Program-made: the position numbers and the translations under genes
The notes under the pieces: model-generated
What the model was told of the DNA's origin: nothing
The model's database searches: none
Seen by the model: only the letters and a program-made list of their open reading frames with translations
Part shown: positions 3,739 to 32,000 of the stretch, piece after piece
Layout: each line of letters begins with the position of its first letter
How positions within the stretch are numbered: position 1 is the stretch's first letter
Assembly: GCA_964640155.1 (NCBI GenBank)
Contig: CAZXEQ010000001.1
Coordinates: 276,403-308,402, forward strand
Origin: an uncultured bacterium
GTDB taxonomy: Bacteria > Auribacterota > JACPWU01
Length of the DNA stretch: 32,000 nt
Direction of reading: 5' to 3'

Positions 3739-4731
3739 TTAAAGTGCATATTTTTCTTTTTTAAACCAATCAACTGCCTTACGCAAGGCACCCTCAACAG
3801 AACTCTGAGGCAAACCTAATTCTCGAACAGCTTTGGATGCATTAAAAAACATAACTTTACGAGCCATGCGAACTCCATCGACAGGAATAGAAGGGGGACG
3901 ATGACTAATCAAATTGGCATATGCTGTACTAAAATAGGCCAAGCCTAGCGCTGCCCACAAAGGCATTTTAAATTTCGGCATTGGAATATCTGTCAAGCGA
4001 GATAAAATTTCAAAAATTTCTTTCAACCAAAGATTTTGACACCCCAAAATATATCGCTCTCCAATTCTTCCCTTTTGGGCAGCTAAAATATGCCCCATAG
4101 CAACATCTTCAACATCAATGAGATTTAAACCTGTTTCAACATATCCGATCATGCGTCCCTTCAAAAAATCTACGATCATTTGCCCTGTGGGAGTAGGCTT
4201 CACATCACGCGTTCCAACGGGCGTGCTAGGATTCACAATCACAATGGGAGCCCCTGCTTTTGCCAGTTTTCTCACTTCCTCTTCAGCTAAAAATTTAGAT
4301 CTTTTATAATGAGAGACCATGTCGTTTAATCTAACTAGAGTCTCTTCATTCCCTAGCCCCTCTTTTAGAGGGATACCCAAAACTCCTACCGTACTTGTGT
4401 AAACAATTTTACGCACTCCCGATTCTAATGCAGCTTTGATGATATTGATCGAGCCTTGAACATTGGACTCATAAAGTGTTTGAGAATTTCTTACCCATAA
4501 ACTATATTCAGCTGCTACATGATAAAGAGTATCGCAACCCCGAAGTGCTTTTGAGAAAGAACCGGCGTCTTTCAAATCTCCTCGCACTAAATCTACAGAA
4601 AAACCTTCTAAATTTTTTAGAGAACTTTGAGGACGGCTAAGAGCCCGCACTTTTTCTCCATTCAAAAGCAATTTTTCAATCACGTGACTTCCCACAAAAC
4701 CTGTTCCGCCCGTCACAAAACTCATACCCAT
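3739..4731 (-). CDS. hpnA: NAD-dependent sugar epimerase/reductase, hopanoid-associated HpnA-like
   Basis: Rossmann motif VTGGTGFVGSHV and catalytic YKRSK. Long blocks typical of HpnA/dihydroflavonol-reductase-like SDRs: IVNPSTPVG-RD-KPTPTG, GLNL..VEDVA.GH, GRIGERYILG. Confidence 0.75.
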   Translation of the reverse strand: MGMSFVTGGTGFVGSHVIEKLLLNGEKVRALSRPQSSLKNLEGFSVDLVRGDLKDAGSFSKALRGCDTLYHVAAEYSLWVRNSQTLYESNVQGSINIIKAALESGVRKIVYTSTVGVLGIPLKEGLGNEETLVRLNDMVSHYKRSKFLAEEEVRKLAKAGAPIVIVNPSTPVGTRDVKPTPTGQMIVDFLKGRMIGYVETGLNLIDVEDVAMGHILAAQKGRIGERYILGCQNLWLKEIFEILSRLTDIPMPKFKMPLWAALGLAYFSTAYANLISHRPPSIPVDGVRMARKVMFFNASKAVRELGLPQSSVEGALRKAVDWFKKEKYAL

Positions 4732-4760
4732 AACGACTTATCCTTAACTATTAAAAATTT

Positions 4761-7154
4761 TCAAACCTTTACAGGCATTTCAAAAAACTTCTGATGAAAT
4801 CCTAGCTTTTTACCTAGAGACTCAAAATTTTTTATCGCGATATCTGATGAATCTTTTTGTAGAACATCAAAAAAAAGATTCTGTATTTTCCAAAGAGAAA
4901 CATTTAAAACTTCTTCATTCGAGAAGTCTAAAATTTTTTCGATTGATTTAAAGTCATTCTGAAAAAATAATTTTTCGAGCTGAGTTTCCAAAACTCCGCG
5001 TAAAGAGGTTAAATCTAAAGCAATATCCCAATGTTTGGCTTCTTCCAAAATAGCCTTCATTTCTTTTAAAACACCATCCTTTTCTGAAAAAACCTTTATC
5101 ACTCTTTCTAAACTTCTCATTAATACATATTCGACAGATGAATGAAATGCTTTAGGTAAAGGAATTTCTTCTTCCCGAAGATGTTCCATCACAGAACGAT
5201 TTTTTTCATAAAATTCTTTAAGAGATTCTTCCAGCTTAAGCAAATTTTCTTCCGTAACAAGATTTAAAATTTTTCTTTTCTCATCCAAGAAAAGATTTTT
5301 CAGAGTCCAATAAGACCCCACTTTTTCCTGACGCATTTGAAAAATTATTTCCTTAAAAAACTTCCCATTAAACTTTTTGATGCTTTCAGCTTTAAAAGCA
5401 TCGAAAGATTCGACATTCCGCCATGTCACACAATGAAAATCAGGACCTCCTAAAAATAAAAGGGCAAAGGCCATTTCTTTAGATTCTAAGGTAATTTTAG
5501 AAGTAACACAAACCCGTCCGACTGAAAAAGAAACTCCATCTCCTGCTAAACGCTCAATCCCCAAAGAGCGATATTCATAACTATAAAGTGTACTTTGCTC
5601 TGGATAAGACTCGAAAAGACTGCTGATAGCCCAATGCGCCATGGCTCTGTTAAAATCAACTCGGGCTGGCTTTACAGCCTTTTCATAAACTCCTAAACCT
5701 GTTCCCCATTCTTTCAAATTACTTTTAGCCTTTGAAAGATATGAAGAAAAAGGATTTTCAAGATTTTCACCAAAATCTTTTGCCAATTGAATAGCACGAT
5801 CGGCGTAGTTTAGAATTTGAACAGGTTCCAAACCAGAAATTTCATCAAAAAACCATCCACAACTTGTAAACATAAGCATTGCATTTCTCTCGATCTCCAT
5901 CAGCTTTATGATTTTTACCTTATCGTCTTCAAGAACAATTTGCGGGGCATGCGACTTTAAAAATGCATTGATGGTTTCAGGATTTCGATCAATCACAACA
6001 TCAATATAATCATTTCTGGCTTTCCAAGGATCATTCAATAAAGGCTTAAGCTCTCTTTCAAAAAGTTCATCTAGTTTTTCTTTTAAACTATTGAGACCTT
6101 CTCTGAGCGGCTTTCTCCATTTCTGATTCCATCCTCGATAATGCTCTGTTCTGCAACCACAATCTTCACTCCATCGTCCTACTCCATGTGCACAACTCCA
6201 CGAACTATTTTCATAAATCTGAACTTCCCATTCCGAAGGGCAAGCTTCTAAATATTCACCAAAATTCGTAAGCCCCATTTCATTCTCATTTATTATTTTT
6301 TCAAGCGCATACGCCAAAGCCATTTCCCCAAATTTGCGATGATGTCCATAGGACTCCCCATCTGTTGCAATGGGAAGGATTTGATTCCAGGATCTATGAT
6401 GTGAAAAGCCCCCCTTCATTTTATGGGCTAAGACTTCTCCGCTCGACAAACTGTCATCAAACGCAAGTCCAAAAGAAATAGGCCCATCATAAAAAAAGAG
6501 ATCTATCGATCGCCCGCTGGGAAGAAGAAGCTTGTAAGCATGAGAAGGATCAATTTTTGCACCTGTAACATCCATCCACTCACTATTTGAACCCAGGGGA
6601 CGAACACGCCAGGCTTGATAAGGCGATAGAAGGGTGAAACGAATTCCATTAGTCGCAAGAATTTCCAATGTTTCTAAATCTACAGCTGTTTCAGAAAGCC
6701 ACATCCCTTCTGGTTTTCTCATGAATCGTTTTTCAAAGTCTCGAATCCCCCAAATCACTTGAGTCTCTTTATCTCGGAGAGAAGTCAAAGGCATAATAAT
6801 ATGATTATAAATTTGAGCCATCGCATTCCCATGTCCCTGATGCGCTCCAACACTGATCTGATCAGCTTCTAATATTTTTTTATAAACATCGCCCGCATGA
6901 CGCTCGAGCCACGCTAAAAGAGTGGGACCAAAATTAAAACTGATGCGTGAATAATTATTAATAATATTTAAAATTTTTCCTTGCGCATCTACAATACGTG
7001 CACAAGTATTGGGCGCATAACACTCTGCAGTCACACGTTCATTCCAATCATGAAAGGGATAAGCGCTATCTTGAATTTCAACTTCATCCAAGCCGGGATT
7101 TTCTCGCGGAGGTTGATAAAAATGCCCATGCACACACAGATTAAATTTTTTCAT
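4761..7154 (-). CDS. Glycoside hydrolase family 57 protein (alpha-glucan acting) with long C-terminal helical domain
   Basis: The N-terminus HGHFYQPPRENP and the following blocks (FNFGPTLL, WLSETA, GHH) are characteristic of GH57 enzymes. 797 aa. Confidence 0.85.
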   Translation of the reverse strand: MKKFNLCVHGHFYQPPRENPGLDEVEIQDSAYPFHDWNERVTAECYAPNTCARIVDAQGKILNIINNYSRISFNFGPTLLAWLERHAGDVYKKILEADQISVGAHQGHGNAMAQIYNHIIMPLTSLRDKETQVIWGIRDFEKRFMRKPEGMWLSETAVDLETLEILATNGIRFTLLSPYQAWRVRPLGSNSEWMDVTGAKIDPSHAYKLLLPSGRSIDLFFYDGPISFGLAFDDSLSSGEVLAHKMKGGFSHHRSWNQILPIATDGESYGHHRKFGEMALAYALEKIINENEMGLTNFGEYLEACPSEWEVQIYENSSWSCAHGVGRWSEDCGCRTEHYRGWNQKWRKPLREGLNSLKEKLDELFERELKPLLNDPWKARNDYIDVVIDRNPETINAFLKSHAPQIVLEDDKVKIIKLMEIERNAMLMFTSCGWFFDEISGLEPVQILNYADRAIQLAKDFGENLENPFSSYLSKAKSNLKEWGTGLGVYEKAVKPARVDFNRAMAHWAISSLFESYPEQSTLYSYEYRSLGIERLAGDGVSFSVGRVCVTSKITLESKEMAFALLFLGGPDFHCVTWRNVESFDAFKAESIKKFNGKFFKEIIFQMRQEKVGSYWTLKNLFLDEKRKILNLVTEENLLKLEESLKEFYEKNRSVMEHLREEEIPLPKAFHSSVEYVLMRSLERVIKVFSEKDGVLKEMKAILEEAKHWDIALDLTSLRGVLETQLEKLFFQNDFKSIEKILDFSNEEVLNVSLWKIQNLFFDVLQKDSSDIAIKNFESLGKKLGFHQKFFEMPVKV

Positions 7155-10504: not shown

Positions 10505-11560
10505 TCAAAGATTTTCTTTTACAAATTTTCCTCTTAACTGTCCACAAGCCGCCTCAATATCCCTCCCCTTACTTCTACGGTAAGTCGCCACAACGCCTAA
10601 AGCCCTTAATTCATCTACAAAAGCATCCCCATGGTCGGATCTTTCAAGCCCGGTTCCTTCCACTTCATTATATTCAATGACATTGACGCTATGAGCAATC
10701 CCTTTTACCATCTGGGACAAAGACTGAGCATCGGAAAGAGCATCATTCACATCTTTTAACAAAAGGTATTCAAAAGTCACTCGACGACCTGTTTTGTCAG
10801 AATAAAGACGTAAAACATCCATTAATTCACTGACAGGATATTTTTGATTAATGGGCATAATCTGATCCCTAGATTCATCATGAGTACCATGAAGAGAAAT
10901 ACTCAATCTCACTTGATGAAGATCTTCTGTCACTTGAGTCCACTTCAATATACCAGGAACATATCCTGCAGTTGAAACGGTAATACGTCTTGCCCCAATC
11001 CCTAAGCCCCATGGAGCTTTTAAAATGGAAATACTTTTTACAAGATTTTCAAAATTAAGAAGGGGCTCTCCCATCCCCATAAAAACAATATGACTGGGTT
11101 TATCATCGCCTTTAAGATCTTGTTCAATGCTTAAAACTTGTCCAATAATTTCATGAACTTCTAAATTTCTTTTGAAACGAACTTGTCCACTTGCACAAAA
11201 CGTGCATTTCAAAGGGCATCCCACTTGAGTTGAAAGACAAATGGTTTTAAAACCCACTTGAGGCATCCAAACGGCTTCGACAAGTTCTCCATCACTCAAA
11301 CGAAAAAGATATTTCACGCTTTTATCATGATGAGAAAAAGCCTTCTCAACAACTTCAAGCGTAGAAACAGCAGCCTTTTCAGAAAGCACCTTTACAAGTG
11401 CTTGAGGCAAATTTTTCATTTGAGAAAAATCTTGAATCTTTTTCTGATAAATCCATTCTAAAACTTGTTTGGCTCGATAAGGCTCAAAACCCCAAGATTC
11501 ACACTGCTTTTGGAATTCTTCTAAAAGGAGATCTGTTAGAAATATCTTTTTCACAATCAA
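10505..11560 (-). CDS. rlmN: Radical SAM 23S rRNA/tRNA adenine-C2 methyltransferase RlmN
   Basis: YRAKQ...W, CPLKCTFCASG radical-SAM motif, MGMGEPL, C-terminal ..IEAACGQL. Confidence 0.92.
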   Translation of the reverse strand: MIVKKIFLTDLLLEEFQKQCESWGFEPYRAKQVLEWIYQKKIQDFSQMKNLPQALVKVLSEKAAVSTLEVVEKAFSHHDKSVKYLFRLSDGELVEAVWMPQVGFKTICLSTQVGCPLKCTFCASGQVRFKRNLEVHEIIGQVLSIEQDLKGDDKPSHIVFMGMGEPLLNFENLVKSISILKAPWGLGIGARRITVSTAGYVPGILKWTQVTEDLHQVRLSISLHGTHDESRDQIMPINQKYPVSELMDVLRLYSDKTGRRVTFEYLLLKDVNDALSDAQSLSQMVKGIAHSVNVIEYNEVEGTGLERSDHGDAFVDELRALGVVATYRRSKGRDIEAACGQLRGKFVKENL

Positions 11561-11934
11561 TCCTCTTGTCTTCCCTGTTCAATCAAAACACGAGCTAAAA
11601 CAAATTTTTTCGTCGAAGCCACATTAATCCACATCATATCTTCTTTTAGAACATATTCTTTCAAATTACCACTTAACCTCACTTTAAAAGCTTTTCCTTG
11701 AGAGTGAACTTGAATTTTTTTCCATCCTGTTAAACCAAACCAAGAAATTTCTAACGCCTTAAAAACAGCTTCTTTGATGGCCATGAGAATTGCTAAAGCC
11801 TTTGAAGAATTTTGACTTGAGTGTATAAAAACCATTTCTTGAGGACTTAAAAAACGACAAAGCTTTTGACCATAGGCTTCATATAATCCTTTCGCTCTTG
11901 AAACTTCAACAATATCTATCCCTATTTTCAGCAT
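11557..11934 (-). CDS. acpS: Holo-[acyl-carrier-protein] synthase
   Basis: The track ORF extends to 12006. The internal ATG at 11934 with GAGGG SD gives MLKIGIDIVEV, the canonical AcpS N-terminus, followed by ..KEA.FKA. Confidence 0.85.
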   Translation of the reverse strand: MLKIGIDIVEVSRAKGLYEAYGQKLCRFLSPQEMVFIHSSQNSSKALAILMAIKEAVFKALEISWFGLTGWKKIQVHSQGKAFKVRLSGNLKEYVLKEDMMWINVASTKKFVLARVLIEQGRQED

Positions 11935-12039
11935 GTTCTTTTTCCCTCGGCGAATAGCATAGCAGAACACAAGATCTTGTGCTATTCTGCATAAAAAATG
12001 AAGCATGAGACAAGAAGATTATAAACAAAATTAAGTGGT

Positions 12040-12109
12040 TTTCCTGTTTCCTGTTTCATGTTTCATGTTTCATGTTTCATGTTTCATGCCTCATGTTTCA
12101 TGATTGATG
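12040..12109 (+). repeat. Tandem heptanucleotide array, ten units of TTTCATG-like sequence, in the divergent acpS/mazG intergenic region
   Basis: Units in order: TTTCCTG x2, TTTCATG x5, CCTCATG, TTTCATG, ATTGATG. Contiguous, with no spacers. Confidence 0.9.
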
Positions 12110-12126
12110 GGATTAAGAACAAACTT

Positions 12127-12924
12127 ATGAAAAAAAGTAACAAGAAAAAAACCAAATCATCCTCTTTCGACCAATTGGTAGAAATCATGCGCATATTGCG
12201 AGGGCCCAAAGGCTGTCCGTGGGATAAAGAGCAAACCCTCAAAAGCCTCAAACCTTATATGGTTGAAGAATGCTATGAAGTTTGGGAAGCCATTGATAAC
12301 GGAAGTCCTTCCCAGATTAAAGAAGAACTTGGAGATCTTCTTTTTCAAGTGGTCTTTTGTGCCCAAATTGCCTGCGAAAACCTTGAATTTGATATTCAAG
12401 ATGTAGCAAAAACTGTTAAAGAAAAAATGACTCGCCGACATCCTCATGTTTTTGGAAAAACAAAAGTGAAAGATTCTGAGGAGGTCCTGTCAAACTGGGA
12501 ATTGATCAAAAAGAAAGAACGTTCTGAAAAAGCTTCTGTCCTGCAAGGCATTCCAAAACATCTTCCTGCTCTTTTGAAAGCTCATCGTACCCAAGCTAAA
12601 GCGTCTCGTGTCGGTTTTGACTGGAAAAAGACAGAAGAGATGATGGATAAACTTGAAGAAGAGTATGGTGAATTAAAAGAGGCCTATCGAGAAGGCAATA
12701 TCGAGCATATTGAAGAGGAAATGGGAGATTTGCTTTTCAGTGTTGTAAATGTTGCTCGAGGCTTAAAAATTAATCCCGAAGACGCTCTTCACAAAACCAT
12801 TCGTAAATTTACAAAACGTTTTCAGTATATTGAAAAGAAAATTGCAGATCGTGGGGAAAAACTCGAAGAAAAGTCCCTCGCAGAATTAGATAAGCTTTGG
12901 AATGAAGCAAAGAAAAAGTTGTAA
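12127..12924 (+). CDS. mazG: Nucleoside triphosphate pyrophosphohydrolase MazG
   Basis: LRGPKGCPWDKEQT..SL..Y..EE.YE and duplicated EE.GDLLF motifs (two MazG domains). The track start at 12058 lies inside the heptamer array; ATG 12127 (MKKSNKKK) is the more likely start. Confidence 0.9.
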   Translation: MKKSNKKKTKSSSFDQLVEIMRILRGPKGCPWDKEQTLKSLKPYMVEECYEVWEAIDNGSPSQIKEELGDLLFQVVFCAQIACENLEFDIQDVAKTVKEKMTRRHPHVFGKTKVKDSEEVLSNWELIKKKERSEKASVLQGIPKHLPALLKAHRTQAKASRVGFDWKKTEEMMDKLEEEYGELKEAYREGNIEHIEEEMGDLLFSVVNVARGLKINPEDALHKTIRKFTKRFQYIEKKIADRGEKLEEKSLAELDKLWNEAKKKL

Positions 12925-17851: not shown

Positions 17852-17959
17852 AAAAAAGTGTGTCCTCTACAAATACGGGTGACACTCGACGGGGAGCCCC
17901 GCCGCGCGCAATTTTTCGTGAGCACGGTGGGGACGACGAGTGGCAGGTCCCGTTTCTTA
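17852..17959 (+). ncRNA. Unclassified GC-rich structured RNA element, copy 2 (minimal 79-nt core), in the leader of giant GspK-like gene 1
   Basis: Core 17875-17953. P1 is ACGGG/CCCGU. P2 is CACUCG (17883-88) with CGAGUG (17937-42). P3 is CCCCGCCG (17897-904) with CGGUGGGG (17925-32), containing a G-U pair that is only valid on the + strand. The conserved loop is CGCGCAAUUUUUCGUGAGCA. Conserved junctions are UGA, ACGGGGAG and GCAGG. No + strand gene lies upstream; the ATG of the next gene is about 150 nt downstream. Confidence 0.6.
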
Positions 17960-18106
17960 CCTAGTCCTAAAGGACGGCGAAAAGCCTGAAGAGACACTTT
18001 TATAGAGGAAAACTAATCTAATATCTTTAATTGCAATTTAAAAGTAACACTATTATTATAATATGCTTTCACGATATTAAATCTATTTTTAGACATCAAA
18101 TATTGT

Positions 18107-21100
18107 ATGTTTATCAATCATCATAAGTCTGCATCTACTGGAGCCGCCCTGGTTCTCACCGTGGGAATGCTTGCCCTTTTGACTTTGCTTGCCGTTGCTT
18201 TTGTAACACTCACACGAACTGAAGAAAAAATGAGTCGTTCATCTATTTATAGATGCCAAGCTCGAGCCATTGCTTCTGCAGGTCTTCATTATGCCATTGC
18301 CATTCTTCAAAAAGATCTACACGACGACAAAGCTGCAACAACTTTAACAGATCCTCAAATGTTGGATTCTTTCGATGAAGAATGGTCGACACTTTTTCTG
18401 GGAGCAGATATTCAACTAAGTACTTATGATGCTCGAATCTCTCGATGGATTTACATTCGAAAAACAACGGATCCAGACAGTCCCATCGTGGGTCGATTTT
18501 CTATTTTAATTCAAGATGAGGCAAGTAAGATCAATATCAATACAGCTGGAATAGGCCATCAAAACGAAGGTTGTAGCACCCATGAAATTGATTTGGGCGA
18601 CATCCCTGGGATTGGCGTTGCCTTAAGAGATGATATTGTCAACTATCGCAATGGTGCTAACACAGTTCCGGGTTCAAATGGTTCAGGCCTCACTCTTTAT
18701 TTAGCAGATGATAACAACAATACAACCCCGCTCAAAAAAAATAATATTGACGATGATGCAGATACTGCAACAGAGGGAATAGACAGTCTGGACTCCGATG
18801 AAGGGCAAGATAACGGTGACCCGAGTGAATTCGACCCAGAATTTCCGTATGGAGACGACAGACCTTTCACAGACATTGAAGAATTGGAAGCCATTCCTGG
18901 AATCGGTAACAACATTGTAAAAGCAGCAAAAAACTATGCCACAATCTGGAGCTATGATCTAAATCAATACTGGAGTAAAGAAACTCAAAGTTGGAACAAA
19001 AAAATTAATTTAAATCATTTTCTTTCTACAGGTCAACTTTACGGACTTGATTTGACTGCCACATCCAAACTTCATCGCTTGGCAGCTAACATCATAGATT
19101 ATAGCGACTGCGATATTTACCCCACTTTCACTACTTCGGATAAGGACAATCCTATTTCAAGCAATTCCTATCTCGGGATTGAAGGATTACAATTCAATGA
19201 AATCATGACTCAAACAGCGGCCATCATCCGAGAAAATAATGCCCATCATGTCAATCGTACAAGCGCTTGGCACCCTCGCTCAACAGATGTAGCCTACGAT
19301 GAAGCAGATGAAGGACAAGTCGGGACATGGAGTTGGCCTTGGGACAATGCAAATTACAATGTCACGATTCAGATTGAAGCAAGTACAACCGAAACAACAG
19401 CACCTATCAGCTATGTTATCGAAGGTGTCTCCGGAACCATTGATCCTCCAGCTACGAGCAGTGGTCCTATTCCCATCACCATTACTGGTGGAGAAATTAA
19501 TTTAACACTCACAGCAGCTCAAGACCCAACAACGCCTCCTCAAAAATCTTCTTTTGATAAGATAAAAATATCTGGTTTAGGGAAATATATTGAAATCATT
19601 AATATCAGCCAGCAAGGCATTTCTTTTGATACAGGAGATGATGATGCATGGAGACTTTTCTTCAATCCATCGCTTGTCTCCCCTGTCGATGATGGTCTTC
19701 CTACCAAAGTTGTTGGGGATTCTTATTTGTCGCTTGCCTCCGCCCTCCATCCCTCTACTTCTATTACTCTGAATGGAATAGACGAGAATGTTCCTACTCA
19801 TGATCCACCCAACTATGACTATTTAATCATCGCAGACAGTCTTTACGCATTAGATGCACTGCATGGATCTAGCGACGACGGATCTTGGTCAAAAACGGAA
19901 TCTGAACCCGGAAAAGTTTTAGTTCTTCCAGATCTTCTCTCTCATCTTCTTGAAGGAACAGATTTGGTTTTAACTGACTGGAAAAATAATGTAATCGCAT
20001 ATGCTCCGTCTTCGAATGAAAAATTTAATATCACTGCGTACGATACATCTTCAACAACGTCTTATGCCTCTTTTTCTCGCATTTCTGCCGTCAATCAACA
20101 AAATGCCTGGTTGATTACAACAAGTACAAGTCCTGGGACAAAAAATTTCAATGCCATTAATTCAGATAGTGGAACAGACAACCTTTTCTGGAAAGTTAAA
20201 GATCGTTCATTCGCGAATCTAGGTGAATTAGGAGATGTTTTTTTAGGAACCAGTAACAATGCAACGCATGACATTGAAACCAGCTATAGCCCTCTGTATT
20301 TTTCTAGAATTACTTTGTCTTCCAAAAGAATTGAAGCAGAGGACGCTGATATGCCTTTACCCTGGAATGCTCAAGAAATATCTTTCGAAAATGATGGAAC
20401 GACACGCTATCTTGCTCCTGGAACATCGGGAGGATGGATATGGAACTGGACTTTTAATCCCACTAACACTTTACCGGATATTGATAAACCTTTTCGTCTT
20501 CCTGTCAACAACACCACATTTGATCTACTTGTTTACGGACAATTTCTTTATCATTTTGATTCACCTATGGGAATTCATCGAAATCCTAAACCCAATCATG
20601 GAGTGAGCCTACCATCTGTCACCATATCAGGAAACAACATCAATTTTCCAATCTATGCAAATGGTTTGGCCCCAAAATTAGATTATATTATTCTGACTCC
20701 CGAGCCCTATACTTGGGGAAAAATCAATATCAATACAGCTTCCAGACAAACTTTAAAGGCCTTACCAGGCATAAGCACATCACTGGCCAATCATATCCTC
20801 GCCTATCGACAAGGAAATTCCGGGCCCTTTAACCAAATTCAAGAAGTCACAGAAGTTTCTAATATTGGGGAAACAACGTTTAAGCCCATTTCCAATCTTA
20901 TTACCGTCAGAAGCGATACCTTTCGTATTCTCGTTAAAGGCCAACAAGTTATGGATATGAATGAAGATAACACCATCGATTCTAATGAAATTATGTCCAC
21001 AATCACTTTAGATGCCATTATAGACAGAAATCCGTCTGGGCAAAGGCCTAACACCAACGATCAATATCAGATTAAGAGTTTAAAACATGAGTACTCCTAA
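18107..21100 (+). CDS. Giant GspK-like minor pseudopilin (paralog 1, 997 aa) with inserted beta-sandwich/LTD-like modules
   Basis: GspK-type N-terminus lacking Glu+5 (STG|AALVLTVGMLALLTLLAV). IQDEASKININTAG + IPGIGVALRDDIVNYR, and a second GKININTAS..LKALPGIS..LANHILAYR helix-hairpin-helix pair. C-terminal ..LITVRSDTFRILV... as in T2SS protein K. About 650 extra residues compared with typical GspK. Confidence 0.75.
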   Translation: MFINHHKSASTGAALVLTVGMLALLTLLAVAFVTLTRTEEKMSRSSIYRCQARAIASAGLHYAIAILQKDLHDDKAATTLTDPQMLDSFDEEWSTLFLGADIQLSTYDARISRWIYIRKTTDPDSPIVGRFSILIQDEASKININTAGIGHQNEGCSTHEIDLGDIPGIGVALRDDIVNYRNGANTVPGSNGSGLTLYLADDNNNTTPLKKNNIDDDADTATEGIDSLDSDEGQDNGDPSEFDPEFPYGDDRPFTDIEELEAIPGIGNNIVKAAKNYATIWSYDLNQYWSKETQSWNKKINLNHFLSTGQLYGLDLTATSKLHRLAANIIDYSDCDIYPTFTTSDKDNPISSNSYLGIEGLQFNEIMTQTAAIIRENNAHHVNRTSAWHPRSTDVAYDEADEGQVGTWSWPWDNANYNVTIQIEASTTETTAPISYVIEGVSGTIDPPATSSGPIPITITGGEINLTLTAAQDPTTPPQKSSFDKIKISGLGKYIEIINISQQGISFDTGDDDAWRLFFNPSLVSPVDDGLPTKVVGDSYLSLASALHPSTSITLNGIDENVPTHDPPNYDYLIIADSLYALDALHGSSDDGSWSKTESEPGKVLVLPDLLSHLLEGTDLVLTDWKNNVIAYAPSSNEKFNITAYDTSSTTSYASFSRISAVNQQNAWLITTSTSPGTKNFNAINSDSGTDNLFWKVKDRSFANLGELGDVFLGTSNNATHDIETSYSPLYFSRITLSSKRIEAEDADMPLPWNAQEISFENDGTTRYLAPGTSGGWIWNWTFNPTNTLPDIDKPFRLPVNNTTFDLLVYGQFLYHFDSPMGIHRNPKPNHGVSLPSVTISGNNINFPIYANGLAPKLDYIILTPEPYTWGKININTASRQTLKALPGISTSLANHILAYRQGNSGPFNQIQEVTEVSNIGETTFKPISNLITVRSDTFRILVKGQQVMDMNEDNTIDSNEIMSTITLDAIIDRNPSGQRPNTNDQYQIKSLKHEYS

Positions 21101-21204: not shown

Positions 21205-21753
21205 ATGCAACCAAAGCGAAGTCTTAGGATAAGTGTTTCAGCTTTCACAGTCATTGAAATGCTTATTGTTATTTCAGTTATTTCTATTCTTGCAGGTATT
21301 TTACTTCCGGCTATTCATTCTGCTCAGAAAAAAGCAAAAATTGCAAAAACTCAGGCTGTCATCGATTCTATCACGATCGCTCTCAAACAATATCAAACAG
21401 ATTTTGGAGCTTACCCATCGGCTGACATTCCAGGCGTTTCAGGAGAAACTTCCGCTGAATGCGCCTACTATTACACAGCCGCAACATTTGTAGCAGGTGA
21501 AAATAGTAATGAAATCTCAGCAGGCCCCTATATGGAATTTCGGCAAAAAGATAGAAAATCAACCAGTAGAACCGCTGACCTATTGGGAGATGGCACAAGC
21601 AATGATACGCTTTATCAAGTGATTGATTCTTGGGGAAACCCTTTAATTTATACTCAACCGGGCACCAACAATTCTAGTTCTTTTGATCTGTACTCCTATG
21701 GGCCAAATGGTACAGCAGGAGGAAGCCCTGATGATGACATTAAGAATTGGTAG
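21205..21753 (+). CDS. gspG: Type II secretion major pseudopilin GspG-like
   Basis: Prepilin motif SA|FTVIEMLIVISVISILAGILLPA, then AK..QAV.D...I..AL..Y..D.G.YPS, and C-terminal DSWGNPLIY..PG....FDLYSYGPNG.AGG..DDI.NW, closely matching GspG family conservation. Confidence 0.85.
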   Translation: MQPKRSLRISVSAFTVIEMLIVISVISILAGILLPAIHSAQKKAKIAKTQAVIDSITIALKQYQTDFGAYPSADIPGVSGETSAECAYYYTAATFVAGENSNEISAGPYMEFRQKDRKSTSRTADLLGDGTSNDTLYQVIDSWGNPLIYTQPGTNNSSSFDLYSYGPNGTAGGSPDDDIKNW

Positions 21754-22348
21754 AAAAACAAACCATCGATTTCTAGGACAATCTGGGGGCTTCACACTCA
21801 TTGAACTCCTCGCTGTAATTACAATTATTGGATTACTTGCACTATTGGGCGTCACCACATTTTCAAAATTTGGAAGCAATATTCGACTTAAAAGTGCGGC
21901 AGATCAAATTGCAAGTACCTTGCGTTTGGCTAGAGATTTGGCCGTTACTCAAAATAAAACAATACGAGCCACCATTTATCCTAGAAGAGCAAGTCCTCCC
22001 AATTGTATCGTTTTAACAGATTCAGGAGTTCAGATAGACAAGCCTTGGATTGCTTCTCCCTTGATTGAAATCGCAGACATAAATGGTTCTTCTAGCTCTA
22101 CAACTATAGACATTGATTTTTCCCCTTATGGAACCGCAAGCAGTAACTCTATTCATATCATTCAAAAAGGAACATTGATTTCAGGAAGTGCTTATAGCCC
22201 TTCAGGCTCGTACACAAGCGCCAACAAAAGCGAGCGCGTCAAGTGTTATACCCTCACAACAGATAACAATACAGCAAGAACACAAATCTATGCTTATGGG
22301 AGAAATGCGCCATGGGATACGGACGATTTAAGCGCATCACCGCCATAA
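21731..22348 (+). CDS. GspH/FimT-like minor pseudopilin
   Basis: The in-frame ATGATG at 21731 overlaps the gspG stop. Leader MMTLRIGRKTNHRFLGQSGG|FTLIELLAVITIIGLLALLG, then ...AADQIASTLRLARDLAV.. typical of GspH-class pseudopilins. The track start at 21683 is probably too far upstream. Confidence 0.7.
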   Translation: MMTLRIGRKTNHRFLGQSGGFTLIELLAVITIIGLLALLGVTTFSKFGSNIRLKSAADQIASTLRLARDLAVTQNKTIRATIYPRRASPPNCIVLTDSGVQIDKPWIASPLIEIADINGSSSSTTIDIDFSPYGTASSNSIHIIQKGTLISGSAYSPSGSYTSANKSERVKCYTLTTDNNTARTQIYAYGRNAPWDTDDLSASPP

Positions 22349-22923
22349 AAAGGGATGCTGTTCCTCAAAGTACGTCCTCTATAACCGCGGGTGACGCTCG
22401 GCGGGGTGTCCCATCGAGCGCAACTTTTCCTGAGCACGATGAGGCTGACGAGCGGCAGGCCCCGCTACTTTTTCAAGATACACCCTTTAATATAGACCAT
22501 CTTAAAAAGTTAGAGAGACAAAAGACAGGTGGCTTCACTTTGGTTGAGATTGTAGTTGCTCTGGGACTTTTAGCCTTGGGCATTCTGGGAATTCTTTCGC
22601 TTTTCCCTGTAGGCTTAGACGCTCAAAAAAGGGCCTTGGATTATTCAAATCTAACTAATTTAGCAGAATGGAAAATGGCCGATATCGCTTACAAAAGTCA
22701 TTTGACAGGCTCCCTTAACAGTCTGACCGCTGCTACAAGTTATCCGAATTCTGGAGTTACTTCTTTTGATCAAAACAAAAAATATTCGTGGCATTATTAT
22801 GTTTCCAAACCCTATTCTGGCACTCTTGACAATCTTTATAGAGTTGATTTAGCGATTTATTCCGTCAGTGACACAACAAATCCTATTGAAAAGGTGGTGA
22901 GTTATCTTGAACTTCCTCAATAA
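22312..22923 (+). CDS. GspI-like minor pseudopilin (prepilin-type N-terminal methylation domain); start codon uncertain
   Basis: QKTGG|FTLVEIVVALGLLALGILGILSLFP, with predicted cleavage after 22533. The only in-frame ATG/GTG/TTG upstream is ATG 22312 (GGAG SD). That gives an unusually long 74-aa leader which reads through RNA element copy 3. Assigned as I-like by small size and position. Confidence 0.6.
   Translation: MGYGRFKRITAIKRDAVPQSTSSITAGDARRGVPSSATFPEHDEADERQAPLLFQDTPFNIDHLKKLERQKTGGFTLVEIVVALGLLALGILGILSLFPVGLDAQKRALDYSNLTNLAEWKMADIAYKSHLTGSLNSLTAATSYPNSGVTSFDQNKKYSWHYYVSKPYSGTLDNLYRVDLAIYSVSDTTNPIEKVVSYLELPQ
22367..22471 (+). ncRNA. Unclassified GC-rich structured RNA element, copy 3 (79-nt core), between the GspH-like stop and the mature GspI-like coding sequence
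   Basis: Core 22387-22465, the same length as copy 2. P1 is GCGGG/CCCGC. P2 is CGCUCG (22395-400) with CGAGCG (22449-54). P3 is UCCCAUCG/CGAUGAGG. The loop is AGCGCAACUUUUCCUGAGCA. Compensatory changes relative to copies 1 and 2 occur in P1, P2 and P3. Confidence 0.6.
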
Positions 22924-23764
22924 CATATTGTCATGCGTCGTGCGTTATACGTCGAGCGTAAAAAGATATATTCCCTCAAGAACCACGCATCACGCATCAC
23001 GTATCACGCACAACGGTTTCTCAATGATTGAGTTACTGAGTGCTCTCGCTATTTTTAGCATCATGGGCCTCGCCCTTTATATTGTTTTTGATAGGGCCAA
23101 TCAAGTGTGGAAACATGGAGAATATAAGTCTGATCAATATCAAAATGCCCGACTCGCATTAGACACCATGTCACGAGAACTGACTTCTTGCTTGATTGGA
23201 ACAGGTGGGCCCACTTCTTTTCAAGATAACACAAATAAACGTCCTTATCTGTGGTCACTGGATAATTCACAGACTATTTCAGGACAAACTTATGATCGTG
23301 ATGAAATCTATTTTACTTTTGTAAGAGCCAACACCATTTATGAAGTTGGCTATTCTATTGATGATCAAAGTAATAGTAACTGCAAAGATGATATTTTGAG
23401 AAGGGCCTATACCTCTGGACTTTCAAGTGGCACAGATTTTGATATTGCAACAACAGATTTTGGATCCAATGATGATTTTGCGTTTAAAGTCACAGATTTG
23501 GATATCAAATTTATTTATAAAGACTCTTCTGGAAATTATCAAAAGGCAAATGTATGGGATACACGCATGGGTTATTTGACAGGAGGAGGAACCACTACCT
23601 CTGGCACCACCATTGACGATGGGCAACTACCGGATTGGATTGAAATCTCCATGCGTATTGTCGATCAGGAAACCCTTAATAAAAACAATGGTAATCCTGC
23701 AAAAGCTGATCGAAAAGAGTTCAAAACACTTATTCCCATGAATCAAAGGAGATTTTCCAGATGA
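22907..23764 (+). CDS. GspJ/PilW-like minor pseudopilin
   Basis: NG|FSMIELLSALAIFSIMGLALYIVFDRANQVW....ARLALDTMSRELTS, as in GspJ-class proteins. TTG start at 22907 follows AAGGTGGTGA; alternatives are TTG 22928 and GVG-frame GTG 22940. The stop overlaps the next gene's ATG (ATGA). Confidence 0.7.
   Translation: MNFLNNILSCVVRYTSSVKRYIPSRTTHHASRITHNGFSMIELLSALAIFSIMGLALYIVFDRANQVWKHGEYKSDQYQNARLALDTMSRELTSCLIGTGGPTSFQDNTNKRPYLWSLDNSQTISGQTYDRDEIYFTFVRANTIYEVGYSIDDQSNSNCKDDILRRAYTSGLSSGTDFDIATTDFGSNDDFAFKVTDLDIKFIYKDSSGNYQKANVWDTRMGYLTGGGTTTSGTTIDDGQLPDWIEISMRIVDQETLNKNNGNPAKADRKEFKTLIPMNQRRFSR
22933..23011. repeat. Inverted pair of heptamer arrays (RTGCGTN on the left, CACGYAT x4 on the right) at the gspI/gspJ junction, inside the gspJ-like leader-coding region
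   Basis: Left arm is ATGCGTC GTGCGTT ATACGTC GAGCGTA (22933-60). Right arm is CACGCAT CACGCAT CACGTAT CACGCAC (22984-23011). The arms pair as periodic 5-bp blocks (18 of 27 positions complementary). Confidence 0.7.
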
Positions 23765-26658
23765 AAATAGTCGACCCTTTGAAAGAAAAAAATTCTCAAG
23801 GCATCGCTCTGATTCTTGTCATGGGGACTCTTGCACTACTCACAGTTCTTGCAGTTTCTTTTACCACATTGATGCGCCATGAAGAAAAATCTAGCCGGGG
23901 ATCATTTCAATTTATTGAAACTCGTGAGCTTGCTACGGCCGGACTTCAATACGCCATCTCTATTTTAACAAAAGATTTAAATGACGATCAAACTTCTAAT
24001 CAACTTTATGATGCTTTTGATGAGGATTGGATTACCCTTTTTACAGGAACAAGTGTTGATTTAGACCAAGACGGAACTTCAGACTCACGATGGATTAACA
24101 TTCATGAAAATGGAATTCTGATCGGCCGTTATGCCATATGCATTCAGGACGAAGCTGGGAAAGTCAATATCAACACAGCCGCTTCAACCTCTCAAAATGA
24201 AGGATGGTCTCCTTATGAAACCAACATGGCTGTTTTGCCCGGTTTAAGCTCAACACTTGCGAGTAATATTCGTAACTATCGGTATGGAGCCAATACTGTC
24301 CCAGGGCTGAACTCCAGTCAACTCGCACCCGATGGGGATGACGATGAAACCTCACTTCCCTTTCGTAATGACGGCATTGACAACGATGGAGATGGATCTA
24401 TCGATGAAATTACTGAAGGAGAAGATGATCCTATTGAATTTAATCCTGAAATTCCCTATGGAGATGATCAACCTTACTCCTCTATTGAAGAATTAGATAA
24501 AGCCAGTAGCAGCTTAACTTCAAGTAATGTTAAAACGCTTAAAAATTATACAACTATCTCCAGTTATGATCTCAATCAATATTGGAATGGGGCTTGGTCT
24601 AAGAAAGTTAATTTAAATCATCTTCTCACCACAGACTCTCTTTACAATTTAGTTCAGGGATCTTCTGGATCTAATTCATTCAGACTTACAGCCAATATGA
24701 TTGACTCTTTGGATCGAGATAATTATCCCACAGCAAAATGGTCTTCCAGTGCTTCATTCAATTCAACTAATGCTTATATCGGGCTAGAAGGACTTCAATT
24801 TAATGAAGTCATGAGACAAACCAAATGGTTTGCTGGAGAAAACAGTACGGCTGATCGTACAGGTTCTGGGTGGAGTGCTTTTTCAACAGAAGACAGGGGA
24901 AATGAAGGAACAACAGGCCAATGGTCCTGGCCATGGGATAATGGAACTTATAACATGAGAATTTATGCGCGTACAGAGGCTGCAACCCCTGTCACTTATA
25001 CGTTGGAAACACTTTCAGGATCTGTAACAACACTTCCCACCCAGGTGAACAATGTGACTGTTTCAGGAGGCAGAATTAATTTACAACTTCTTGCCCCTAC
25101 TCAATCGGGCGGAGGACAACAATATTCCTATTTTGACAAAATTGAAGTTCAGGCTGGGAAATACATTGAAATCATCAACATCAGTCAAAGAGCTGTCACT
25201 GTTGATAAAACAGGAAGCGATTCTTGGAATCTTTATTTCGGAGGGTCTCTCAGTGCCCCCTCTGCTGATGGACTTCCTGCAAGACAAAGTGGAGGAACAG
25301 CTCTTGCCCTATCTGGAGCAACTTATCCCACCAGTGGAGATATTACTTTATGGTCGGCAGCTCCTACCACCTATCGCTATTTAATTATTGCAGACAGTCT
25401 TTATGGACTCGATGCCACTTATGGCAATAATAATGGGTCATGGTCCGGTGGATCTGCTCCAGAATCAGAAAGACTTTTAGTTCTTCCACAACTTTTGTCT
25501 AATCTCAATTCTGGCACAGACCTCACACTCACAGACTCTCAAGGTAATGTTATTGCGTATGCACCTGCTACAGCGCAATTTAATATTCTAGGATTTGATG
25601 ATGCTACCCTGGCTACTTATCAAAGTTTTTCTAGATCTTCACCTGTCAATCAACAAAGTGCATGGACCACTTCTACAGCCACAAACGAACAAACACCCGG
25701 AAGAAATAATAATGGAGTGACACAAAGTAATACGGGAGAAAATAAATATTGGTTGATCAAAGATCGCCCCTTTGCCAGCATCGGAGAATTAGGAGATGTA
25801 TTTTTAGGAACTCAAAATAATCAGACTTATGATTTGGAAACATCTGGAAATTATCTGGATAAAATAACCCTAGCAGCTAAACGATTGGAAGCTGAAAATG
25901 CAAACTCTATTTCCTGGAGTAACTCAGAAACAGCTTCTGATCAGGATGGAACCACACGCTATGTTGCTTCCAATAGTAATCGCACACTTGCAAGATGGGA
26001 TTGGACGTTTGACATCAGCATTACTACCGACATCAGCAAACCTTTTCGACTTAAAAGTAATACTTCTTATGACATGATTGCATATGGGCAATTCGCAAGC
26101 AATTTTGAATCCCCCAGTGGAACATCTCGTTGGGTAAAACCTAATCACAGCTCTGCTCTAGACTCTCAAACGGTTGGTAATCTCATAACCAACGGTATTC
26201 GTTTCGATGCTTATGGAAATACTTCCGTAATTCCTAAATTTGATTTTTTAATTTTAACTCCAGACCCTTATACCTGGGGCAAAATCAATATTAATACAGC
26301 TTCCAGCACTGTTCTTCAAAGTTTAAAAGGTATTAGTAGTACGCTTGCCTCAAACATTGTCAGTTATCGCCCTTTATCGAATAGCAATCCTTTTAATACC
26401 ATACAAGAGTTGATGTCCGTTTCAGGGATTGATGAAACGGAGTTTAAGCCAATTGCCAATCTTATTACTGTACGTAGTGACGTTTTTAGAGTCATTGTAA
26501 GAGCTGAGAAAATTGTCGATGCTAATAACAACGGTACCGTTGATTCTGGGGAAAATATTTCAACCATTACATTAGATGCGATTGTAGATCGTAATCCTTC
26601 CGTCCGTGATCCTGGTACAACGGATAAACACAGAATTGAATCATTGAGATATGAGTAA
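23761..26658 (+). CDS. Giant GspK-like minor pseudopilin (paralog 2, 965 aa) with inserted beta-sandwich/LTD-like modules
   Basis: NSQG|IALILVMGTLALLTVLAV, IQDEAGKVNINTAA, GKININTASSTVLQSLKGISSTLASNIVSYR, LITVRSDVFRVIV. Collinear with paralog 1 along its whole length. AAGGAGA SD. Translationally coupled to the gspJ-like gene. Confidence 0.75.
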   Translation: MKIVDPLKEKNSQGIALILVMGTLALLTVLAVSFTTLMRHEEKSSRGSFQFIETRELATAGLQYAISILTKDLNDDQTSNQLYDAFDEDWITLFTGTSVDLDQDGTSDSRWINIHENGILIGRYAICIQDEAGKVNINTAASTSQNEGWSPYETNMAVLPGLSSTLASNIRNYRYGANTVPGLNSSQLAPDGDDDETSLPFRNDGIDNDGDGSIDEITEGEDDPIEFNPEIPYGDDQPYSSIEELDKASSSLTSSNVKTLKNYTTISSYDLNQYWNGAWSKKVNLNHLLTTDSLYNLVQGSSGSNSFRLTANMIDSLDRDNYPTAKWSSSASFNSTNAYIGLEGLQFNEVMRQTKWFAGENSTADRTGSGWSAFSTEDRGNEGTTGQWSWPWDNGTYNMRIYARTEAATPVTYTLETLSGSVTTLPTQVNNVTVSGGRINLQLLAPTQSGGGQQYSYFDKIEVQAGKYIEIINISQRAVTVDKTGSDSWNLYFGGSLSAPSADGLPARQSGGTALALSGATYPTSGDITLWSAAPTTYRYLIIADSLYGLDATYGNNNGSWSGGSAPESERLLVLPQLLSNLNSGTDLTLTDSQGNVIAYAPATAQFNILGFDDATLATYQSFSRSSPVNQQSAWTTSTATNEQTPGRNNNGVTQSNTGENKYWLIKDRPFASIGELGDVFLGTQNNQTYDLETSGNYLDKITLAAKRLEAENANSISWSNSETASDQDGTTRYVASNSNRTLARWDWTFDISITTDISKPFRLKSNTSYDMIAYGQFASNFESPSGTSRWVKPNHSSALDSQTVGNLITNGIRFDAYGNTSVIPKFDFLILTPDPYTWGKININTASSTVLQSLKGISSTLASNIVSYRPLSNSNPFNTIQELMSVSGIDETEFKPIANLITVRSDVFRVIVRAEKIVDANNNGTVDSGENISTITLDAIVDRNPSVRDPGTTDKHRIESLRYE

Positions 26659-31661: not shown

Positions 31662-31672
31662 GTAAAAACCGA

Positions 31673-31762
31673 GTTAAGAGTTAAGGGCTAAGAGTTATGG
31701 GGTTAAGAGCTAGAACGTTCGATGTGGCTTTTACTTAGCCCATAGTCCTTAACTCTTAGCCC
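31673..31762. repeat. Inverted pair of heptamer arrays (GYTAAGR units) between lpxK and the LpxL-fusion gene
   Basis: The + strand reads GTTAAGA GTTAAGG GCTAAGA GTTATGG GGTTAAGA GCTAGAA. The minus strand after the lpxK stop reads GCTAAGA GTTAAGG ACTATGG GCTAAGT. GGGCTAAGAGTTA (31684-96) is the exact complement of TAACTCTTAGCCC (31750-62). Confidence 0.75.
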
Positions 31763-31766
31763 TATT

Positions 31767-32000
31767 TTAGTAGTAACAAATATTGTGCACAAAATCATTA
31801 AAATCCGAAGCCCCCTTCACCAGCTTAATTTCAACTCTCAAATAAAGAAGCCTTACACCATCCAACGGAAAACTGGGGATTCGAACTGCATCTTTTTCTG
31901 TTGTTACAATAATTTGAATACCTTGGGCCTTTGTCTTAGCTACAATATCTTTCAGTTCTCGTCGATGATAGCGATGATGATCTCTAAACCGAAAAGATAA
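31767..32000 (-). CDS. lpxK: Tetraacyldisaccharide 4'-kinase LpxK, C-terminal fragment (start lies beyond the window end)
   Basis: Not in the ORF track. The reverse complement from 32000 reads LSFRFRDHHRYHRRELKDIVAKTKAQGIQIIVTTEKDAVRIPSFPLDGVRLLYLRVEIKLVKGASDFNDFVHNICYY*, with the stop at 31769-31767. F.DHH.Y and TTEKDAV.. are the conserved LpxK C-terminal motifs. Co-directional with the downstream lipid A/LPS genes. Confidence 0.8.
   Translation of the reverse strand, partial: LSFRFRDHHRYHRRELKDIVAKTKAQGIQIIVTTEKDAVRIPSFPLDGVRLLYLRVEIKLVKGASDFNDFVHNICYY

Follow-up and report, generated by a model that had tools for sequence, protein, structure and literature searches.

An in-frame palindromic repeat as the probable source of the long cleavable leader of a GspI-like pseudopilin

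The subject of this study is a structured palindromic repeat that occurs three times, always on the + strand, in a 32,000-nucleotide (nt) stretch of DNA from an uncultured bacterium of the Auribacterota (contig CAZXEQ010000001.1 of assembly GCA_964640155.1, positions 276,403 to 308,402; the whole stretch is hereafter called the window). Its third copy lies in the leader-coding part of a gene for a GspI-like pseudopilin, and we consider it fairly likely that this copy is a dispersed repeat inserted in frame into a cleavable leader, read through by the ribosome and discarded together with the leader. In mechanistic terms, copy 3 would have landed directly after the stop codon of the gspH-like gene as a block of 156 nt that is open in the gspI frame. 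Translation would still start at the ancestral ATG at 22312, coupled to gspH by an overlap of 37 nt, and the ribosome would read through the element, producing a leader of 74 residues (aa) instead of approximately 22. This longer leader would indeed be translated and cleaved; it would be expected to stay in the cytoplasm, and its removal by the prepilin peptidase between GG and F would leave the mature pseudopilin unchanged, so that the leader can be regarded as a permissive landing site, comparable to the surface loops that accommodate Rickettsia palindromic elements (RPE).

The probable insertion in the gspI-like leader

The gspI-like gene (22312–22923; this and all other features of the pseudopilin cluster and its repeats lie on the + strand) encodes a protein of 203 aa and belongs to a cluster with the order K1-like, G, H, I, J and K2-like. 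Its ATG is preceded by a Shine-Dalgarno (SD)-like GGAG at 22299–22302 and falls within the last 37 nt of the open reading frame (ORF) for the gspH-like pseudopilin (21731–22348; Pfam N_methyl and GspH, PF12019). The GspI-like protein itself carries the hallmarks of prepilin-type N-methylation, with a Pfam N_methyl match at residues 71–95 (E 3e-5) and with F75, T76, L77 and E79 invariant among 15 homologues. The processing site GG/FTLVEIV is located at 22528–22536, where the GG occupies 22528–22533 and cleavage falls at 22533/22534, dividing the gene into a leader of 74 codons, counted from the ATG to the GG preceding F (22312–22533), and the mature coding region with its stop codon (22534–22923). 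The covariance model of the repeat places the core of copy 3 at 22387–22465 (72.3 bits, E 1e-12), which confirms an earlier analysis made from the letters alone (the sequence-only reading) in placing the motif after the stop of the gspH-like gene (22348) and before the cleavage site. That reading had also pointed out that no in-frame ATG, GTG or TTG follows the motif; a codon scan agrees and finds none anywhere from the ATG at 22312 onwards until cleavage occurs in the sequence. Start-like codons in frame there are limited to ATC 22336 and ATA at 22345, 22381 and 22492, the last of which would give a leader of 14 aa.

When compared with its relatives, the protein is unusually long. Fourteen homologues measure 128–169 aa, as opposed to 203 aa, and the short basic leader typical of such proteins is replaced here by one of 74 aa, the leaders called for the 14 homologues being of 3–46 aa. 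In the two closest of them (P0002 and P0003), leaders are 21–23 aa long, a comparison across homologous operons that the sequence-only reading had suggested as a check. At the DNA level, the window was aligned with two Chlamydiae-labelled relatives, namely L003, which carries the gene of the closest homologue P0002, and L004, which carries a syntenic K1-G-H-I-J-K2 operon. Both show a single clean gap of 156 columns with alignable flanks on either side. The block that is extra in the window (22350–22505, boundaries good to a few nt) starts directly after the gspH stop and corresponds to a gap of 52 aa in the alignment with the homologous proteins; its length is a multiple of three, and only one of its three frames is free of stops, precisely the one in phase with gspI. 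P0002 begins with MGHRRFKRITAIKNPASQKAQ followed by GFTLVEI, the cleavage site coming almost immediately after, and the window counterpart is MGYGRFKRITAIK, an N-terminus MG[YH]xRFKRITAIK being common to both. The overlapping ATG and the N-terminus after it are also present in the relatives (L003 MGHRRFKRITAIK, L004 MERKRFK), and this, together with the lack of a later start, supports the previous proposal that translation proceeds from ATG 22312 through the element. Likewise, the notion that the discarded leader is free to host such a structure is strengthened by the leaders of 21–23 aa in L003 and L004, which lack exactly the 156-nt block.

The gene on both sides of the block appears to have been maintained. 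The first 13 codons of gspI, which also encode the C-terminus of GspH, are identical to L003 at 36 of 39 nt, and the mature protein is 88% identical to that of L003, with a dN/dS of 0.066, a dS of approximately 1.1 and no frameshift; hence an ancestral start and a functional gene under selection seem to have been retained. At the edges of the block, the heptamer TAAAAAG is found twice, at 22346–22352, where it contains the gspH stop, and at 22503–22509, 157 nt away from the first, whereas L003 has a single TAAAAAA in their place; the spacing of 157 nt is offset by a leader remainder that is 1 nt shorter (28 versus 29 nt). This A-rich pair may tentatively be considered the target-site duplication of copy 3. 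Searches with nhmmer and with the covariance model with filters off detected no element in L003, L004 or L005, and the homologous dnaJ-K1 spacer of L004 (172 nt), corresponding to the site of copy 2, holds no copy. Thus, the relatives lack the element at both positions of the window for which an orthologous region was compared, namely the junction of H and I and the spacer between dnaJ and K1.

A dispersed family of folded elements

The sequence-only reading had seen the motif repeated in the window, including a position before K1, and the covariance model indeed finds three copies and nothing else there. Around copy 3, the stretch homologous among the window copies, that is, the core plus subfamily-specific flanks, was delimited by repeat families, alignment and nhmmer (22367–22476) to 22366–22497, the 3' limit of 22497 being a reading of the flanks; the GC content of the leader segment with the motif is 0.53, compared with approximately 0.39 in its surroundings. 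Copy 2 (17854–17960, core 17875–17953, 76.4 bits) occupies the region between dnaJ and the gspK1-like gene, and copy 1 (2149–2343, core 2170–2319, delimited to 2149–2326 by repeat analysis) lies upstream of a D-Ala-D-Ala carboxypeptidase gene. The covariance match of copy 1 (47 bits, 2242–2317) is broken by a nested, branched hairpin of 75 nt (2179–2253) that replaces the 5' strand of P2, and its whole unit of 161 nt folds at -84.7 kcal/mol (z = -5.7). A different insert is present in P3 of the copy in L029, and both cases suggest either that the elements are themselves targets of insertion or that their stems can expand. Among short-read contigs from Logan, L001 stops at or beside copy 2 and L085 at or beside copy 1, as is usual at repeats.

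Outside the window, the family was surveyed with a pattern built from the bases that do not vary among the three window copies (GCGCAA-N4-10-TGAGCAC-N14-18-GGCAGGNCCCG; 23 specified bases), for which approximately one chance match was estimated in the 596 Gb of GTDB representative genomes. These yielded 79 loci, four of which are chance matches without the 5' half, and JGI metagenomes yielded 82, of which about four are false. Overall, approximately 150 true copies were recovered in addition to the three found within 32 kb, which defines a dispersed, multi-copy palindromic unit of about 100–150 bp. The same pattern found no match in viral contigs, and a pattern specific to the subfamily of the Planctomycetes-Verrucomicrobia-Chlamydiae (PVC) superphylum found none in metagenomes. 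True copies occur in Omnitrophota (which hold most of them), Auribacterota, the candidate phyla radiation (CPR; Uhr-, Kerfeld-, Doudna- and Saccharibacteria, as well as Parcubacteria), metagenome-assembled genomes (MAGs) of Planctomycetales and some MAGs labelled Gammaproteobacteria. In Auribacterota, the element is present on ten contigs of one MAG, with sequences nearest to the window copies. The unit of a CPR subfamily (L010, L022, L037, L040, L047, L050, L068 and L077) is asymmetric, in that a conserved A/T-rich 5' extension of about 35 nt (TAAACTTTTTATTGAGCCnGAAAGGCCAAG...) is placed before the hairpin in contexts unrelated to one another, and its 80-nt cores are identical between MAGs.

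From a structural point of view, the consensus reads nCGGGUGAC, P2 (5–7 bp), J, P3 (7–9 bp), G(C/A)GCGCAAC and an apical loop, followed in the 3' half by GUGAGCAC, P3', J, P2' and GGCAGGACCCGn, and the core measures 75–82 nt across the family. The apical loop is GNNA/GNA or CUUUUNN, with the third base free; the basal module shows an A.G mismatch and a bulge of three nucleotides (GGA), and the C.A, G.A and A.G mismatches of the apical module are invariant. Outer inverted arms, which are lineage-specific, lengthen the hairpin to 100–155 nt. Copy 3 contains all these parts (P1 CGGG/CCCG, a UGAC//GGCAGGN internal loop, P2, P3 and the apical GCGCAA...UGAGCAC module), slightly eroded by a C.A mismatch in P3 and by GGC in place of the GGA bulge. 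Since its folding energy is unexceptional (z = -0.6 for the core and -0.15 for the 156-nt block), the structural case for copy 3 is based on covariation in the family. In a covariance alignment of 77 distinct sequences, standard pairs fill 96.9% of the cells, compared with 83.9% after shuffling and 23–44% when partners are slid, and 191 double-sided changes were counted where 55.5 are expected, affecting ten pairs; the closing pair of P1, for instance, is GC in 52 sequences, AU in 10 and UA in 10. A conserved fold with covariation support is therefore a property of the family.

The data identify the strand that matters with only moderate clarity, and the selected form would be either RNA or single-stranded DNA. 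Counts of G.U versus A.C are 59:6 for P3 (with few independent events), 11:9 for P2 and 8:9 for the outer stems; because a strong bias is confined to P3, the assignment to the + strand derives for the most part from the purine-purine mismatches and the G...A apical loops, and the latter fit stable DNA hairpins of the GNA/GNNA type as well as RNA. When the window and 18 motif-bearing loci were compared with Rfam 15, there was no match at gathering score, and even at E<=10 the motif gave none, and a literature search by sequence strings and keywords found no description of the family. Several known structures were compared by hand with the consensus and rejected: a tRNA-like structure has no T-arm here, the register of G.A/A.G is wrong for a K-turn, the catalytic cores of hairpin, HDV and hammerhead ribozymes are absent, SECIS does not fit either, UGA being for the most part intergenic or out of frame, and integron attC sites would require R'/R'' boxes and a cassette context, which are lacking.

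For 88 copies, a neighbour lies no more than 400 nt away on either side; 38 of these copies lie between genes that both run in the direction of the element (>>) and 27 between genes that both run against it (<<), with 14 divergent (<>) and nine convergent (><) cases, a spread that is roughly that of random intergenic placement, taking the expectation, which was not computed, from typical bacterial genomes. In the co-directional cases, 27 of 65 copies are antisense, with no significant sense preference, and local GC skew shows no bias with copy orientation (57 positive, 62 negative). Copies usually fill very tight spacers, often at 0–60 nt from each neighbour, and the downstream genes are diverse housekeeping genes, such as tmk, dusB, argG, tilS, dnaG, hflX, gpmA, purB, prmC, rplU and others. 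No pilin genes adjoin copies elsewhere, pseudopilins being found only in the window, and a search for prepilin motifs downstream of other copies gave a single weak regex match (GMTFPEA, which a 458-aa ORF of L031 has at residue 74). Some contexts do recur. The junction between cysS and tmk is occupied in at least ten contigs (L024, L028, L042, L099, L102, L109, L118, L124, L131 and L165), and a purF/purM context, in antisense, recurs in four to five (L015, L081, L112, L123 and L127). At the cysS-tmk junction, seen in many Omnitrophota-type genomes, the TAG stop of cysS often forms the first pairs of the stem. In L078, a copy on the minus strand (4248–4328) lies about 50 nt downstream of an RNase P RNA gene on the same strand (4377–4777, RF00010, 166.7 bits).

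Approximately 5% of copies lie in ORFs. For instance, a 1534-aa alpha-2-macroglobulin-like ORF of Auribacterota (L066) reads through the element as ...NTGDARRGGPSSATFAEHDGADERQDPPLL..., in the same frame as, and with a sequence near to, the ...TAGDARRGVPSSATFPEHDEADERQAPLL... of the window, a frame in which GGU GAC is read as G D. In obg of a Saccharibacterium (L075), the element adds residues 96–126, which are absent from Obg of Bacillus subtilis (PDB 1lnz), the alignment with this structure breaking exactly at the extra residues. The element has no universally open frame (A 59%, B 2%, C 52%). In-frame insertions absent from orthologues are thus documented twice, in gspI by comparison with L003/L004 and in Obg by comparison with PDB 1lnz.

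Known repeats and alternative explanations

The behaviour of the element recalls several known systems. RPE are described (Ogata et al. 2000, summarised in PMC10969869) as translated insertions that are frequently in frame in unrelated protein genes. The likeness extends to palindromic repeats of about 100–150 bp with many dispersed copies, to tolerance at positions where a protein is not disturbed by additional residues, and to a host that is an obligate intracellular or reduced-genome bacterium. RPE families, however, are confined to Rickettsia, whereas the present core is common to PVC, Omnitrophota and CPR; moreover, only about one copy in twenty resides in an ORF here and no frame is universally open. 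The likeness is behavioural: a relationship in sequence is not expected and, the phylum being different, no membership is claimed. REP and REPIN sequences are extragenic hairpin repeats, some of them intragenic, mobilised by RAYT (Y1 HUH) transposases, and they resemble the element in occurring in either orientation near gene ends and occasionally within genes, in persisting for long at orthologous sites, in a strand-specific structure (recognised as single-stranded DNA in REPs) and in by-effects on mRNA stabilisation or termination (PMC3733652, PMC3116915). They nevertheless measure 20–40 nt, bear a GTAG or CGTC tag and have species-specific sequences, whereas the core studied here is about 80 nt long with invariant loops across phyla, the bases before its stem vary (TTAG, ATAG, CCAG, GATG and others) without a consistent tag, and no RAYT adjoins any copy within loci of about 8 kb. 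The MITEs (miniature transposable elements with inverted repeats), such as Correia of Neisseria, ERIC and BOX, are non-autonomous elements of 100–150 bp with terminal inverted repeats derived from a parent insertion sequence. They, too, form long hairpins when co-transcribed, lie between operon genes and give rise to occasional in-frame fusions. In the present family, by contrast, the termini vary by lineage while the centre is conserved, the outer arms pair, and neither a parent element nor a clear target-site duplication was found. It is the conservation across phyla that sets the family apart from REP, RPE and MITEs. On the insertion reading, the family would spread as a non-autonomous mobile or converting element, its + strand fold being recognised by machinery encoded elsewhere.

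Riboswitches and other cis-acting RNAs of Rfam share with the element a covarying multi-stem fold, invariant loop nucleotides and the presence of several copies per genome. The sequence-only reading had concluded from the placement of the motif that I, J and K2 are controlled separately from G-H, and K1 likewise through copy 2, and a cis-regulatory RNA of this kind (riboswitch, attenuator or processing site) would fit the positions at the H/I boundary and upstream of K1, the conserved internal loops and the location of copy 1 in a likely 5' untranslated region. It would also make use of an alternative, mutually exclusive mini-hairpin of 5 bp in copy 3 (AGCGG/CCGCT, stem 22451–22466), which together with the U-run ACUUUUUC (22451–22475) is a loose match to the terminator consensus. 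This U-run tail, however, is confined to the PVC-type subfamily and is absent in copy 2 and most of the family, and the only promoter-like site upstream of K1 (18031–18059) is located downstream of copy 2, which argues against copy 2 belonging to the K1 leader. Separate control is further disfavoured by the near-random orientation with its many antisense cases, by the lack of any functional class among the neighbours and of downstream pilins elsewhere, by the missing match in Rfam 15, by the syntenic operons that do without the element and by the copies within ORFs. A dedicated regulatory role is therefore improbable. An effect on the expression of G-H versus I-J-K2, if any, would rather be a by-product of the hairpin, through mRNA stabilisation or partial termination as in REPs, and such a by-effect on H versus I-J-K2 mRNA is possible.

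Still less probable is that the insertion disabled gspI, leaving a young pseudogene or a restart at a non-canonical codon. Although the leader is far longer than in the homologues retrieved and ATA 22492 would restore one of 14 aa, no SD-like sequence precedes this codon, the ancestral SD and ATG are kept, the ORF is intact and in frame, the mature part shows strong constraint (dN/dS 0.066) without frameshift, and the element is read through in the essential obg of another lineage. A further possibility, which we regard as rather unlikely, is a host-beneficial structured RNA maintained by selection at every locus (a module of operon mRNAs for protein binding, processing or stability, a small RNA gene or a new ribozyme), of which copy 3 would be a functional resident and not a tolerated parasite. 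The recurrent cysS-tmk and purF/purM contexts, the invariance across phyla of the C.A, G.A and A.G pairs and of the 3-nt bulge, the excess of G.U over A.C in P3 (59 to 6) and the sequence identity of the cysS-tmk copies all speak for it: between L024 and L118/L131, for instance, Tmk is 75–78% identical, yet the core is 99% identical and the flanks are unalignable. Conversely, L042 and L118 share Tmk proteins of 91% identity and identical element boundaries, yet carry different subtypes (77% identity), and residence in antisense within operons means that the conserved strand is often not the mRNA strand. In-frame residence in Obg and other ORFs would be odd for an RNA gene, neither the outer stems (8:9) nor P2 (11:9) show a G.U bias, the GNNA/GNA loops with their free third base are not the RNA-specific GNRA, and close relatives do without the element at the two window sites compared.

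It is nevertheless important to stress what weighs against the in-frame insertion of a mobile repeat. No transposase, reverse transcriptase or other recurrent family adjoins the copies within the loci of about 8 kb, and a split autonomous form of the element was not seen. The putative target-site duplication comprises only 7 bp of A-rich sequence, for which a chance origin is possible, and is seen at copy 3 only. The conserved part of the element is the apical 80-nt core, nearly invariant across phyla, and not the termini. At the cysS-tmk junction the core is 97–100% identical where Tmk is only 75–80% identical and the flanks are unalignable, which implies that resident copies are either overwritten (converted) or under strong selection, so that a host function is possible. 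Finally, the terminator-like mini-hairpin and U-run at 22451–22475 leave room for a local operon effect.

Other features of the window and significance of the repeat

The remaining members of the pseudopilin cluster are the gspK1-like gene (18107–21100, 997 aa), the gspG-like gene (21205–21753), the gspJ-like gene (22907–23764) and the gspK2-like gene (23761–26658, 965 aa). The K1-like and K2-like genes, both with HHH_3 and weak T2SSK Pfam matches, are giant paralogues that flank G-H-I-J on either side; the arrangement with two GspK genes is also present in L004, and L005 has the distal copy only. A palindrome is found in the gspJ-like leader as well (38 aa; 22925–23025; -25.2 kcal/mol, z = -3.0), in which CACGCAT x3.9 (22984–23010) faces an inverted ATGCGTC GTGCGT (approximately 22934–22950). 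As positions 630–700 of L003 resemble it, this would be a second pseudopilin leader of the operon that hosts hairpin-forming DNA. Two further repeats occur elsewhere in the window. At 12040–12102, a tandem array of nine TTTCATG heptamers (91% matches) covers the 5' end of an ORF (12058–12924), whose ATG falls within the array, and lies just downstream of a divergent ORF (11557–12006). At 31665–31768, an inverted repeat of 33 nt with GAGTTAA-like heptamers (arms 31665–31697 and 31736–31768) is located a short distance downstream from where the last large minus-strand ORF begins.

As regards the family, we tentatively propose that the 80-nt core (nCGGGUGAC ... GUGAGCAC ... GGCAGGACCCGn) may define an undescribed family of strand-specific structured elements, which would be common to Chlamydiota, Auribacterota, Omnitrophota, Planctomycetales and several CPR lineages, near-invariant at orthologous sites despite divergence of the flanking genes and yet able to move, to be overwritten and to sit in frame in essential genes; it might represent either a new kind of mobile element, on whose fold (as single-stranded DNA or RNA) an unknown but widespread enzyme would act, or a functional RNA of a new type, such as a protein-binding module or a ribozyme.

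For the locus itself, the idea of a riboswitch that splits a pilus operon would be replaced by a simpler and testable story, that of a repeat lodged in a disposable signal sequence, which automated annotation will report as an odd GspI of 203 aa. The translated palindromic repeats known from Rickettsia would thereby be extended to Chlamydiae, Auribacterota and, with Obg, Saccharibacteria. More generally, a structured element of 80 nt, conserved across phyla and with no entry in Rfam or the searched literature, is present in little-studied lineages with small genomes, such as CPR and Omnitrophota. Should a mobilising enzyme or a host factor use the conserved fold as its handle, identification of this partner would reveal new genome dynamics or new RNA biology in uncultured bacteria.

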